From: Escherichia coli
GTDB lineage: Bacteria; Pseudomonadota; Gammaproteobacteria; Enterobacterales; Enterobacteriaceae
Strand: one strand, 5' to 3'
Length of the DNA: 64,000 nt
Assembly (NCBI RefSeq): GCF_003790525.1
Contig: NZ_CP033635.1
This document shows, piece after piece, positions 54,769 to 63,330 of this stretch (the first letter of the stretch is position 1; the number at the start of each line of letters is the position of its first letter). The notes under the pieces were generated by a model. That model searched no databases. It was not told the DNA's origin and saw only the letters and a list, made by a program, of their open reading frames with translations. The position numbers and the translations under genes were made by a program.

Positions 54769-57468
54769 ATGCGTAAATATCCTTTAAGTTTACTGAAGGA
54801 TAAAAATATTGTGACTTTTTTTGATTTCTGGGGAAAAACCCGACGCGGCGAGAAAGACGGGGGCGACGACTATCACCTTCTTTGCTGGCATTCGCTGGAT
54901 GTAGCCGCGATGGGCTATTTAATGGTTAAAAGCAATTGCTTCGGACTGGCTGACTATTTTCGTCAATTAGGTTTCGCTGACACGGAGCAGGCAGCACAAT
55001 TTTTCGCCTGGCTGCTGTGCTGGCACGATATTGGAAAATTTGCCCGCTCTTTTCAGCAACTTTACCTGCACCCACAACTCAAGGTCCCGGAAGGCGCAAG
55101 AAAGAATTACGAAAAGATCTCTCATTCAACGCTGGGCTACTGGTTGTGGAACCATTATTTAAGTGAATGTCAGGAGTTGCTTCCTTCATCTTCACTCTCT
55201 CCGCGCAAACTTAAACGGGTGATGGAGATGTGGATGCCCATGACTACCGGGCATCATGGTCGACCCCCTGAGCGTATGGATGAACTGGATAATTTTCTGC
55301 CTGAAGACAAAGGTGCCGCACGAGATTTTCTCCTTGCAATCAAGGTACTGTTTCCGCTCATAGAGATCCCCACATTCTGGGATGATGACGAGGGCGTTGA
55401 ACTTATAAAACAACTTTCCTGGTATATCTCTGCAACCGTCGTACTTGCAGACTGGACGGGATCGTCAACGCGATATTTTCCACGCGTCGCACAGACAATG
55501 GATATTGAAGATTACTGGCAGAAAACTTTAGTTCAGGCTCAAAACGCCTTAACCGTCTTTCCTCCAAAAGCAGAAAGCGCGCCTTTCACCGGAATTAATA
55601 CGCTGTTTCCTTTTATTGAGAATCCGACACCGCTACAGCAAAAGGTGCTGGATCTGGATATCAGCCAGCCGGGACCACAGTTATTTATTCTGGAGGATGT
55701 AACCGGCGCAGGTAAAACAGAAGCGGCGCTTATCCTGGCGCACAGGTTGATGGCTGCGGGGAAAGCGCAGGGTTTGTTTTTTGGCCTGCCAACAATGGCA
55801 ACGGCCAATGCCATGTACGATCGACTGGTCAAAACCTGGCTTGCTTTCTATTCGCCAGAGTCCCGCCCCAGCCTGGTGCTGGCACACAGTGCCCGAACAT
55901 TAATGGACCGCTTTAATGAATCACTCTGGTCCGGTGATTTAGTCGGGTCAGAAGAACCGGATGAACAAACGTTCAGTCAGGGATGTGCGGCCTGGTTTGC
56001 CGACAGTAACAAGAAGGCGCTACTGGCTGAAATTGGCGTCGGCACGCTGGATCAGGCGATGATGGCTGTGATGCCGTTCAAACATAATAATCTGCGGCTT
56101 CTGGGACTGAGTAACAAAATCCTGCTGGCTGATGAGATCCATGCCTGTGACGCTTACATGTCATGCATTCTTGAAGGGCTGATCGAGCGGCAGGCGCGTG
56201 GCGGAAACAGCGTCATTTTGCTTTCTGCCACGTTATCTCAACAGCAGCGCGACAAACTCGTTGCTGCCTTTGCGCGTGGTATAGAGGGCCAGCAAGAAGC
56301 TCCGTTCCTGGAAAAGGATGATTACCCCTGGCTGACGCACGTTACGAAATCCGATGTGCATTCACACCGGGTAGCGACGCGCAAAGACGTTGAGCGCAGC
56401 GTGAGTGTGGGTTGGCTTCATAGCGAACAAGAGTGTATTGCGCGTATCGCATCGGCGGTAAGTCAGGGGAAATGTATCGCCTGGATCCGAAATTCTGTCG
56501 ATGACGCCATCCAGGTTCATCGTCAGTTACTTGCCCGCGGCGTCATTCCTGCTTCCAGCCTTTCACTTTTTCATAGCCGCTTTGCTTTTAGCGATCGCCA
56601 GCGAATTGAAACGGAGACGCTGGCACGCTTTGGTAAAGAAGACTGTTCACAGCGTGCCGGAAAAGTCCTCATTTGTACTCAAGTCCTGGAGCAGAGCGTT
56701 GACTGCGACCTGGACGAAATGATTTCCGACCTTGCCCCTGTTGATTTACTGATCCAGCGAGCAGGGCGATTACAGCGACATATCCGCGATATGAATGGCC
56801 AGTTAAAGCGTGACGGTAAAGACGAGCGTCACCCTCCTGAATTGCTGATTCTGGCCCCCGTCTGGGACGACTCTCCGGGTGACGAATGGTTTGGCAGTGC
56901 CATGCGTAACAGTGCATTTGTCTATCCCGATCATGGGCGAATCTGGCTGACGCAGCGTGTGCTGCGTGAGCAAGGTGCTATTCAGATGCCACACTCAGCC
57001 CGGCTTCTGATTGAATCAGTCTACGGTGAGGACGTAGTAATGCCGGAAGGGTTTGCCCGCAGCGAGCAGGAGCAAGTGGGCAAATATTACTGCGATCGCG
57101 CAATGGCTAAAAAGTTTGTACTGAACTTCAGGCCCGGCTATGCCGCCAATATCAACGATTACCTCCCGGAAAAACTGTCGACACGTCTGGCTGAAGAGTC
57201 TGTTTCCCTGTGGCTGGCTACCTGTATTGACGGTGTGGTGAAGCCTTATGCCACAGGTGCACACGCATGGGAAATGAGCGTTGTCAGAGTGCGCCGAAGC
57301 TGGTGGAAAAAACATCGGGATGAGTTTTCTTTACTGGAAGGGGATGCGTTCAGGCAGTGGTGCGTTGAACAGCGGCATGATCCGGAGATGGCAAACGTGA
57401 TTTTAGTCACCGATGACGAAAGTTGTGGGTATTCGGCTACGGAGGGATTGATTGGCAAGGTTGGTTGA
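54769..57468 (+). CDS. cas3: Cas3 nuclease-helicase (type I-E)
   Basis: 899 aa; N-terminal HD motif (HSLDVAAM), Walker A (TGAGKTEAAL), DExH (DEIHA); heads the cas operon. Confidence 0.9.
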   Translation: MRKYPLSLLKDKNIVTFFDFWGKTRRGEKDGGDDYHLLCWHSLDVAAMGYLMVKSNCFGLADYFRQLGFADTEQAAQFFAWLLCWHDIGKFARSFQQLYLHPQLKVPEGARKNYEKISHSTLGYWLWNHYLSECQELLPSSSLSPRKLKRVMEMWMPMTTGHHGRPPERMDELDNFLPEDKGAARDFLLAIKVLFPLIEIPTFWDDDEGVELIKQLSWYISATVVLADWTGSSTRYFPRVAQTMDIEDYWQKTLVQAQNALTVFPPKAESAPFTGINTLFPFIENPTPLQQKVLDLDISQPGPQLFILEDVTGAGKTEAALILAHRLMAAGKAQGLFFGLPTMATANAMYDRLVKTWLAFYSPESRPSLVLAHSARTLMDRFNESLWSGDLVGSEEPDEQTFSQGCAAWFADSNKKALLAEIGVGTLDQAMMAVMPFKHNNLRLLGLSNKILLADEIHACDAYMSCILEGLIERQARGGNSVILLSATLSQQQRDKLVAAFARGIEGQQEAPFLEKDDYPWLTHVTKSDVHSHRVATRKDVERSVSVGWLHSEQECIARIASAVSQGKCIAWIRNSVDDAIQVHRQLLARGVIPASSLSLFHSRFAFSDRQRIETETLARFGKEDCSQRAGKVLICTQVLEQSVDCDLDEMISDLAPVDLLIQRAGRLQRHIRDMNGQLKRDGKDERHPPELLILAPVWDDSPGDEWFGSAMRNSAFVYPDHGRIWLTQRVLREQGAIQMPHSARLLIESVYGEDVVMPEGFARSEQEQVGKYYCDRAMAKKFVLNFRPGYAANINDYLPEKLSTRLAEESVSLWLATCIDGVVKPYATGAHAWEMSVVRVRRSWWKKHRDEFSLLEGDAFRQWCVEQRHDPEMANVILVTDDESCGYSATEGLIGKVG

Positions 57469-57565
57469 GATGTCTGCGACAGGATTCTCTGAATAGTTGA
57501 TACACAAAAAAGGATGGAAGGATGGACAACCGACCAGGGATGGTCTTTTTTACGAGAGGATGCGT

Positions 57566-62120: not shown

Positions 62121-63040
62121 CGTTTGTACCACTGAGTCCGATCCCGTTAAAAGATCGCACATCTATGATCTTCCTCCAGTACGGTCAGGTCGACGTACTG
62201 GACGGCGCTTTCGTGCTGATCGACAAAACCGGGATCCGCACGCATATTCCAGTGGGATCGGTCGCCTGCATTATGCTCGAACCGGGAACAAGAGTTTCCC
62301 ACGCGGCAGTCCATCTGGCCGCCACGGTGGGAACACTGCTGGTCTGGGTCGGTGAAGCGGGCGTTCGCGTTTACTCCTCCGGACAACCCGGAGGGGCGCG
62401 GGCAGATAAATTACTCTACCAGGCAAAGCTGGCTTTAACGGAAGATCTACGGTTGAAGGTGGTGCGCAAAATGTATGAATTACGTTTTCGTGAACCACCG
62501 CCAGCTCGCCGTTCAGTGGAGCAGTTACGGGGAATTGAGGGATCCCGTGTTCGCCAGACCTATGCATTACTGGCGAAGCAATATGGTGTGAAATGGAATG
62601 GTCGCAAATACGATCCTAAAGACTGGGAAAAAGGCGATGTTGTCAATCGCTGCATCAGTGCTGCCACATCATGCCTGTACGGTATATCTGAAGCGGCGGT
62701 ATTAGCCGCGGGATATGCGCCCGCTATTGGATTTATCCATAGTGGCAAACCGCTTTCATTTGTTTATGACATAGCCGATATCATTAAATTTGATTTGGTT
62801 GTGCCAAAGGCATTTGAAATAGCGGCAAGACACCCGGCAGAACCTGATAAAGAAGTGAGACTGGCCTGCCGTGATATTTTCCGTAGTAGTAAATTAACGG
62901 GCAAATTAATTCCGTTAATTGAGGAAGTCCTTGCCGCCGGTGAAATTGAACCACCACAACCTGCGCCGGATATGTTACCACCAGCTATCCCGGAACCTGA
63001 ATTGCTAGGTGATAGTGGTCACCGGGGGCGCAGCGGATGA
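62117..63040 (+). CDS. cas1: Cas1 integrase
   Basis: 307 aa, GTG start overlapping casE stop; near-identical to recalled K-12 Cas1 ([36 protein letters not shown]). Confidence 0.9.
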
Positions 63041-63330
63041 GCATGGTCGTGGTTGTTACAGAAAATGTCCCTCCGCGCTTACGTGGACGGCTTGCAATCT
63101 GGCTCCTGGAAGTACGTGCCGGTGTTTATGTTGGTGATACATCAAAACGTATTCGGGAGATGATCTGGCAGCAAATCTCCCAACTGGCAGGTTGCGGAAA
63201 TGTGGTCATGGCCTGGGCGACCAATACCGAGTCGGGTTTTGAATTTCAGACCTGGGGTGAAAACAGACGTATTCCGGTGGATTTGGATGGGTTACGGTTG
63301 GTTTCGTTTCTTCCTGTTGAGAATCAATAA
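63037..63330 (+). CDS. cas2: Cas2
   Basis: 97 aa, [34 protein letters not shown]; ATGA overlap with cas1. Confidence 0.9.

Follow-up and report, generated by a model that had tools for sequence, protein, structure and literature searches.

An intact CRISPR-Cas locus of type I-E, EO variant, in Escherichia coli and its relation to the K-12 type

The window analyzed here is a stretch of 64,000 nucleotides of Escherichia coli DNA (contig NZ_CP033635.1). It holds a complete type I-E cas operon in the chromosomal slot between cysH and iap. [quoted passage not shown] We give a probability of about 0.85 to the following joint explanation. The locus is an intact copy of the variant called cas-EO (EO type) or var. 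B-8552, in the cysH-iap slot of an E. coli close to strain SMS-3-5. It is coherent, with no recombination between its adaptation and interference modules. The K-12 type would be an alternative allele of the whole block, with an old exchange of the interference cassette in its ancestry.

The cas operon is 100% identical to that of E. coli SMS-3-5 (NC_010498.1). From cysI to the end of the window (13.7 kb), both sequences are identical apart from a single 1349-bp insertion, which is an IS186 element. Previous work described two variants in this species, cas-EK (K-12) and cas-EO (O157:H7), which differ in function and are each associated with a leader and repeat of a particular type, 'type A' in the case of cas-EO (Díez-Villaseñor et al. 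2013, PMC3737337). The acquisition motif is CTT for K-12 and CWT for O157:H7 (PMC3737337). More recently, a table from 2025 gave the gene lengths of var. B-8552: cas3 2700, casA 1563, casB 537, cas7 1056, cas5 747, cas6 651, cas1 924 and cas2 294 bp (PMC12736100). In the same work, Cas1 and Cas2 were 84% and 86% identical to K-12, the other detectable interference proteins 23-32%, and CasB was undetectable (PMC12736100). The open reading frames (ORFs) listed for the window have these same eight lengths from cas3 to cas2, and the identity profile against K-12 also agrees with the published table. Among 5426 complete E. coli genomes, the EO-type operon is found in 2419 (at least 80% coverage, 91-100% identity) and the K-12-type operon in 1114 (97-100% identity). 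The locus is already known, and it is the most common non-K-12 variant of the E. coli I-E system.

The eight genes lie on the plus strand, as eight uninterrupted ORFs exactly at 54769-63330, which agrees with the earlier note on this DNA. The cas3 gene (54769-57468) encodes an 899-residue fusion of an HD nuclease and a superfamily 2 helicase. In this single ORF, TIGR01596 covers residues 38-233 and TIGR01587 residues 306-676, both above cut-off. The large Cascade subunit is encoded by casA, also named cse1 or cas8e (57566-59128, 520 aa; TIGR02547, 605 bits, full length), with the same start in RefSeq. The small subunit gene casB, or cse2/cas11 (59125-59661, 178 aa; TIGR02548), overlaps casA by an ATGA. 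The backbone subunit corresponds to casC/cas7e (59676-60731, 351 aa; TIGR01869, 444 bits), followed by casD/cas5e (60742-61488, 248 aa; TIGR01868). The gene for the pre-crRNA (CRISPR RNA precursor) endoribonuclease, casE/cas6e (61470-62120, 216 aa; TIGR01907, 284 bits), overlaps casD by 19 nt. At the 3' end of the operon are the integrase gene cas1e (62117-63040, 307 aa; TIGR03638, 380 bits), which starts with GTG and overlaps casE by a GTGA, and cas2e (63037-63330, 97 aa; TIGR01873), with an ATGA overlap with cas1. The two ATGA overlaps and the GTGA overlap described before were verified in the sequence, and the translations begin as it had given them (MRKYPLSLL in Cas3, MNSFSLLTTPW in Cse1). 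The RefSeq annotations of SMS-3-5 and CM2 have the same cas coordinates, lengths and starts, with no pseudogene flags.

Each of the eight proteins passes the curated NCBIfam threshold of its general type I-E family. The signature genes of the subtype, cse1 and cse2, as well as cas7e, cas5e and cas6e, are present with near full-length model matches. Cas3 and CasA stay below the cut-offs of the K-12-specific equivalog models NF007248 (423 vs 569 bits) and NF007247 (103 vs 576 bits), as is expected because the variant is divergent. The catalytic motifs are conserved. The HD, HH, Walker A (TGAGKTEAA), DEIH and QRAGRLQRH (motif VI) motifs of Cas3 align with the solved Cas3 4q2c. Likewise, E141, H208, D218 and D221 of Cas1 are invariant with respect to K-12, and the catalytic histidine of Cas6e aligns with K-12 H20. 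Cas7 closely matches the solved chain 9uer_E over its full length (351 aa, 626 bits); a text search of the literature for the code 9UER found nothing relevant.

Compared with K-12 MG1655, the interference proteins are very different. Protein identity is 27.5% for Cas3, 21% for CasA, 19% for CasB, 27.5% for Cas7, 30% for Cas5 and 26% for Cas6e. From cas3 to casE there is no alignable DNA, and by DNA similarity, as by the two equivalog models, the locus is not of the K-12 type (cas-EK). On the other hand, Cas1 is 84.0% identical (85% by tblastn) and Cas2 83.5% (86% by tblastn). The earlier note was right that Cas3 and Cse1 are clearly unlike those of K-12, and the contrast that it drew between conserved adaptation and divergent interference genes is real with respect to K-12 (84% vs 19-30%). 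It went too far in calling Cas1 and Cas2 nearly identical to K-12. About one residue in six differs, and the two genes have 71-73% DNA identity, a non-synonymous divergence (dN) of about 0.13 and saturated synonymous sites (dS). The flanking cysH and cysI genes have a dS of 0.14-0.16 against K-12, with 97% DNA and 99.5% protein identity. Given a saturated dS in cas1 and cas2 next to a flank dS of about 0.15, the adaptation genes of both variants split long before E. coli, and they are not shared with K-12 by recent descent. The likeness of the Cas1-Cas2 proteins to those of K-12 is kept by purifying selection.

The eight proteins of each E. coli variant were compared with those of 80 loci. These loci are the closest Cas1 relatives found in species-representative genomes, which were scanned with a Cas1 alignment query and two conserved peptide patterns. 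Trees of Cas1 plus Cas2 were made by neighbour-joining on about 400 columns with 200 bootstraps. Cas1 and Cas2 are 75-98% identical across the 80 loci, which come from many gammaproteobacterial genera and include those of Pectobacterium, Marinomonas, Oceanospirillum, Methylophaga, Gilliamella, Shewanella and Parasutterella. It means that an 84% identity in Cas1 alone says little about kinship. The interference genes form deep classes: one with the window (O), one with K-12 (K), and a few loci in neither. Every enterobacterial type, whether O, the distant subgroup of O or K, is in the cysH-iap slot, the location also reported for the I-E system of Klebsiella pneumoniae (PMC6054925).

For each gene of the window, the nearest relatives are the same: E. 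albertii, an Escherichia sp. genome and Pseudocitrobacter, then Salmonella, Klebsiella and Citrobacter. The eight proteins are uniformly 92-98% identical to E. albertii and Escherichia sp. Since one ordered set of relatives serves all eight genes, the locus is coherent. The Cas1 plus Cas2 clade of the window has a bootstrap of 196-199/200 and matches the neighbours of the interference genes. The earlier note had read the locus as a mosaic. The difference between modules relative to K-12 stands, as said above. The idea that the locus joins K-12-like adaptation genes to foreign interference genes does not, given these congruent relatives and the support of the clade; identity to one lineage is uniform across the eight genes, both with SMS-3-5 and with E. 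albertii and Escherichia sp.

The signs of exchange between modules are found on the side of K-12. All six K-12 interference proteins have their nearest relatives in K-class loci (52-74%), those of Citrobacter amalonaticus, Erwinia endophytica, a Pantoea species and Marinomonas rhodophyticola. The six Cas1 proteins most similar to that of K-12 (91-95%), however, are each encoded beside an O-class Cascade. In the Cas1 plus Cas2 tree, K-12 falls within a group of 11 O-class loci (162/200, with 175/200 for the inner clade), which makes the K-12 type look like the chimera. Pairs of loci of different class with at least 90% identity in Cas1 share only 29-31% in Cas7, whereas same-class pairs in that range share 57-100%. 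In the species pairs of Oceanospirillum and Marinomonas, the DNA is homologous throughout cas1-cas2, beginning at the cas1 start codon or no more than 6 nt from it. The Oceanospirillum pair shares one flank as well, and the cassette in between is unrelated. In the Alteromonas/Marisediminitalea and Halopseudomonas pairs (L066/L067 and L069/L076), homology reaches about 830-870 bp upstream of cas1, into the casE region, and the other interference genes differ in class; the cassette breakpoints are therefore not always at casE/cas1. A recent origin of the K-12 cas1 from its closest protein relatives was considered and rejected, with DNA identity at just 76-83%. Module exchange is thus real in this I-E family, and the data point to the ancestors of the K-12 type as its place, not to the window.

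The contrast between modules probably has two causes. One would be a very strong purifying selection on Cas1-Cas2 throughout the I-E clade. The other would be the old exchange in the ancestry of the K-12 type, which left enterobacterial Cas1-Cas2 beside a Cas3 and a Cascade of a deeply divergent class. Two other readings place the exchange elsewhere or dispense with it. The locus itself could be the recombinant, with a recently shared, K-12-like adaptation module joined at casE/cas1 to a foreign interference module. Protein identity to K-12 does leap from 19-30% to 84% exactly at this junction, and DNA is alignable with K-12 only from cas1 onward. We consider this origin very improbable, because cas1 and cas2 are so much more divergent in DNA and at synonymous sites than the flanks, the leader diverges from K-12 too, the eight genes have congruent nearest relatives with a strongly supported Cas1 plus Cas2 clade, and the window Cas1 is 96-97% identical to that of Salmonella and E. 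albertii and 84% to that of K-12. Alternatively, no module was exchanged anywhere: the variants would have split once as whole operons, with a slow Cas1-Cas2 and a fast Cas3 and Cascade, driven for example by an arms race with anti-CRISPR proteins. The difference in rate is real and large. Conservation of Cas1 is extreme, with 96% identity between the proteins of E. coli and Salmonella (vs 91% for CysH), and within the O class Cas7 drops to about 55% when Cas1 stays at about 83%. Nevertheless, pairs with at least 95% identity in Cas1 and about 30% in Cas7 exist (K-12 with locus L020, Oceanospirillum, Marinomonas), where same-class loci have a median Cas7 of 94%. The position of K-12 Cas1-Cas2 inside the O-class clade and the homology of the genus pairs beginning exactly at cas1 also speak against it. 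Taken with the split of the K-12 relatives by module, these facts make rate differences alone insufficient, and we rate a history free of exchange as highly improbable.

A wider version of the exchange reading seems to us somewhat more probable than even. Across Gammaproteobacteria, and in the enterobacterial cysH-iap slot, the I-E interference cassette from cas3 to cas6e would have been replaced repeatedly by deeply divergent classes, with cas1-cas2 tending to resemble those of related hosts. K-12 would then be a chimera in which enterobacterial Cas1-Cas2 are combined with Cascade and Cas3 of foreign origin. In some E. coli, this chimera would have taken the place of the ancestral EO locus by an illegitimate event, with hokX cut at its start codon.

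The limits of the divergent block within E. coli can be followed in the alignment with K-12. On the left, the two sequences align almost perfectly from cysH, via the sok/hok leader, to ...GGCAAGACATG, which ends in the ATG of a hok-like gene (53074-53076), and are then unalignable. The left edge is therefore at 53076/53077, directly after the hok ATG. K-12 has no hok ORF; it keeps the sokX side alone, and its cas3 begins about 100 bp past the break. On the right, the trailer-end spacer, a degenerate last repeat and iap are shared with K-12 at 97%, and the leader only at about 64%. Between the two E. coli variants, there is no species-level breakpoint at the casE/cas1 junction. The right-hand crossover falls within the repeats, in agreement with the proposal of Touchon and Rocha 2010 (PMC2886076). 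The break at the hok ATG, the divergent leader and the shared trailer end point to an exchange of the whole block, from the hok ORF into the array. The exchanged block thus comprises the hok ORF, cas3 to cas2, the leader and part of the array, and the K-12 type would be an alternative allele of all of it.

Of the two types, EO has probably resided longer in Escherichia. E. albertii and the Escherichia sp. genome have it too, with hok upstream, and it tracks the relatives in Enterobacteriaceae. Its range of identity is also wider than that of the K-12 type (91-100% vs 97-100%). The K-12 arrangement, with hok cut at its ATG, looks derived.

Some points weigh against the joint explanation given at the start. 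On a fine scale the locus does show some recombination, as short divergent patches are present in casA and casB. Against some strains (XPFI_3_2, O157:H7), the stretches of the window at 57800-58800 in casA and 59200-59400 in casB have 72-80% DNA identity over a background of 92-100%; one segment of casB is 79% identical in DNA. These patches suggest recombination among EO alleles, or diversifying selection. The trees are neighbour-joining trees on about 400 columns, with some weak inner nodes (77-91/200). The breadth of Cas1 conservation is conditional on the choice of loci by two Cas1 peptide patterns. The direction of change, with EO ancestral and K-12 derived, is deduced indirectly from the truncated K-12 hok, the presence of the EO type in E. 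albertii and the narrower identity range of the K-12 type. Finally, H-NS generally keeps the I-E systems of E. coli silent (PMC3737337), so the function in this strain is a presumed one.

From the membership of the proteins in their families, the system would work as follows. Cas6e would cut the repeat hairpin of the array transcript. Cse1, Cse2, Cas7, Cas5 and Cas6e would assemble with the crRNA into Cascade, which would find matching DNA flanked by a protospacer adjacent motif (PAM) and recruit the Cas3 nuclease-helicase. Cas1-Cas2 would insert new spacers at the leader-proximal repeat. The operon could, on the contrary, be an intact-looking but silent relic, or have a non-immune use, and the IS186 element 184 bp upstream of cas3 may have altered the transcription of this gene. 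The repression of E. coli I-E systems under laboratory conditions (PMC3737337) is in favor of this possibility, as is the lack of any match between the spacers of the SMS-3-5 array and phage or plasmid records at megablast sensitivity. It nonetheless seems unlikely. The eight ORFs and the catalytic motifs are intact, and cas1 and cas2 are under strong purifying selection. A repeat variant specific to the lineage occupies 18 of the 21 repeats of the SMS-3-5 array, which suggests many later acquisitions, and EO-type (O157:H7) Cas1-Cas2 acquire spacers experimentally (PMC3737337). Together, the intact genes and motifs, the strong purifying selection and the spread of the repeat variant are indirect signs that would indicate past activity. 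For a system considered silent, the purifying selection on Cas1 is unusually strong. The E. coli protein is 95-96% identical to that of Salmonella or Citrobacter (L011, L016 and others), more than CysH (91-93%), and cas1 DNA is just 77-81% identical.

The leader is an AT-rich segment of 96 bp (63331-63426, plus strand). The array (63427-64000, plus strand) has a period of 61 bp, with spacers of about 32 nt. Nine of its 29-nt repeats, GTGTTCCCTGCGCCAGCGGGGATAAACCG, are complete, and the end of the window truncates the tenth. Ten repeat copies at 61-nt spacing were found, against none in 100 shuffles. The array of SMS-3-5, identical in the part covered by the window, has 21 repeats of the exact pattern and probably one divergent repeat. 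As in O157 and other EO-type loci, the repeat begins with GTG, and in K-12 with GAG. All repeats of the window present a C-to-T change (GTGTTCCCTGCG...), with CCCTGCG in place of CCCCGCG. This form was not seen in the other sampled arrays of E. coli, E. albertii, Salmonella, Klebsiella and Citrobacter. The repeat is palindromic, with a predicted hairpin that is kept through a U-G wobble (-13.0 vs -15.2 kcal/mol). In the SMS-3-5 array (L003, 12828-14137), the three repeats that are canonical lie on the trailer side, and the last one before the shared ancestral spacer has the T form again. Such a distribution suggests that many spacers were acquired after the first repeat mutated.

The SMS-3-5 array gave no protospacer in the phage and plasmid collections at megablast sensitivity, and hence no basis for deducing a PAM. 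The matches were limited to other CRISPR arrays and a solitary site that resembles a repeat. That site is on the 96-kb E. coli plasmid NZ_CP107157.1 (16153-16184), a single match of 31/32 nt to a canonical I-E repeat of the SMS-3-5 array, where no array is annotated. The region upstream of cysJ is a frequent place of a second I-E array in E. coli. No second I-E array was found in positions 1-63400 of the window with up to three mismatches.

Upstream of cas3, an intact hok-like toxin gene of the hokX/sokX locus (53074-53226, plus strand, 50 aa, Hok/Gef family) and its upstream sok/mok region (52809-53076) sit between cysH and the cas operon. In SMS-3-5 and CM2, the RefSeq annotation has a Hok/Gef protein in the same position. 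A hok gene upstream of cas3 occurs, among the fetched loci, in Escherichia only (E. coli, E. albertii and Escherichia sp.). Next to it is the insertion sequence IS186/IS421, of the IS4 family (53247-54585, plus strand, about 1339 bp). Its 372-aa transposase ORF (53296-54414) is intact and matches the NCBIfam IS4 family transposase. The ends of the copy, (C)ATAAGCGCTAACTTAAGGGTTG, are inverted, and the target duplication is 10 bp long, GGGTAAAACC (53237-53246 and 54586-54595). It was inserted in a GGGGG-TAAAA-CCCC hairpin 3' of hok, and it is not a component of the CRISPR-Cas system. Exact mapping of the insertion shows that it is absent from the otherwise identical SMS-3-5. An insertion at the same site is present in CM2, O104:H4 and many other unrelated strains; the junction query was covered to at least 80% in 1906 genomes, some of them possibly through paralogous hok loci. 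Either the site is a hot spot for insertion or the polymorphism is old. The AT-rich segment that follows (54586-54768, plus strand; GC content of 0.39 in 54500-54999) presumably contains the promoter and silencing region of cas3. A consensus scan for promoters and terminators in 52800-57700 was uninformative; it detected nothing promoter-like upstream of cas3 or casA, and shuffled sequences had more sites.

Other occurrences of the EO genes deserve mention. Strain KSC9, with EO-type cas1-cas2 only, was considered as a hybrid of EK and EO and rejected; it has an internal deletion from cas3 into cas1. Two contigs of metagenome-assembled genomes, one assigned to Bacillota (L007) and the other to Collinsella (L086), hold E. 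coli-type EO cas genes with 95-99% protein identity (CasB 85% in L086). The Bacillota contig also bears iap. These are most likely Escherichia DNA introduced as contamination during binning.

By itself, the locus brings little that is new. Of the two I-E variants known in E. coli it is the commoner one, and a genome published in 2008 has an identical copy. The K-12 Cascade, on the other hand, is not representative, since about twice as many complete E. coli genomes bear the EO Cascade, whose proteins are 20-30% identical to those of K-12. Results obtained with K-12 on PAMs, anti-CRISPR proteins, CRISPR interference tools and regulation may then not transfer to most natural isolates. An adaptation module that follows the host lineage, combined with interchangeable interference cassettes, is relevant to how the two halves of CRISPR immunity co-adapt. 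If the K-12 type is indeed a chimera, E. coli would be a natural test bed for the matching of adaptation and interference, for example in PAM choice and priming. We regard the replacement of cassettes and the chimeric K-12 type as a modest lead, an instance of the known modular evolution of CRISPR-Cas systems.

The closest known system is cas-EO or var. B-8552 itself, with the same eight genes, order and exact lengths and the same cysH-hok-cas-array-iap context. The locus of O157:H7 ATCC 43889 has 93.8% DNA identity to the window over 100% of the operon query (8821 bases), and its proteins are 95-99% identical each, except CasB (83%). The allele of the SMS-3-5 type, to which the locus of the window belongs, differs by about 6% in DNA from the majority EO allele. 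It also has the lineage-specific repeat variant CCCTGCG and, in the window, the IS186 upstream of cas3. The I-E loci of Salmonella enterica, Klebsiella and Citrobacter share the slot and the interference class, and have the canonical GTG... repeat. With 84-88% identity in Cas7, 68-74% in Cas3 and 92-96% in Cas1, they are orthologues at the species level and not the same allele; hok upstream of cas3 was not found outside Escherichia.

The K-12 cas-EK system, the source of the model Cascade (PDB 4qyz, 4tvx and 5h9f), has the same subtype, gene order and chromosomal slot. Its array also has a 29-nt repeat (two differences), a 61-bp period and the trailer spacer common to both. Nevertheless, the Cas7 of the window scores higher against the Cascade of Thermobifida fusca (154 bits, 5u07) than against the Cas7 of K-12 (100 bits). 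The casE and cas1 genes overlap by 4 nt in the window and are separated by 15 nt in K-12. The GC content at third codon positions (GC3) is 48-59% in the cas genes of the window and 36-42% in those of K-12. As a marker of a joint between modules, GC content was rejected; in both variants the GC3 of cas1 and cas2 is within or near the range of the neighbouring interference genes, with no clear breakpoint. The spacer between cas3 and casA is 97 bp long in the window and 414 bp in K-12, where it holds the Pcas promoter controlled by H-NS and LeuO. The short spacer of the window (57469-57565) presents a small hairpin followed by a run of T (57532-57545). With both features, the transcription of the EO variant may be organized differently from that of K-12, for example with cas3 co-transcribed with the Cascade genes.

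The adaptation and effector modules of CRISPR-Cas systems are said, by Koonin and Makarova in 2019, to shuffle in a modular evolution. The sampled I-E loci likewise have incongruent histories of Cas1-Cas2 and of the interference cassette. The difference is that the exchange here seems to occur within one subtype (I-E) and in a fixed slot, between deeply divergent classes of Cascade.

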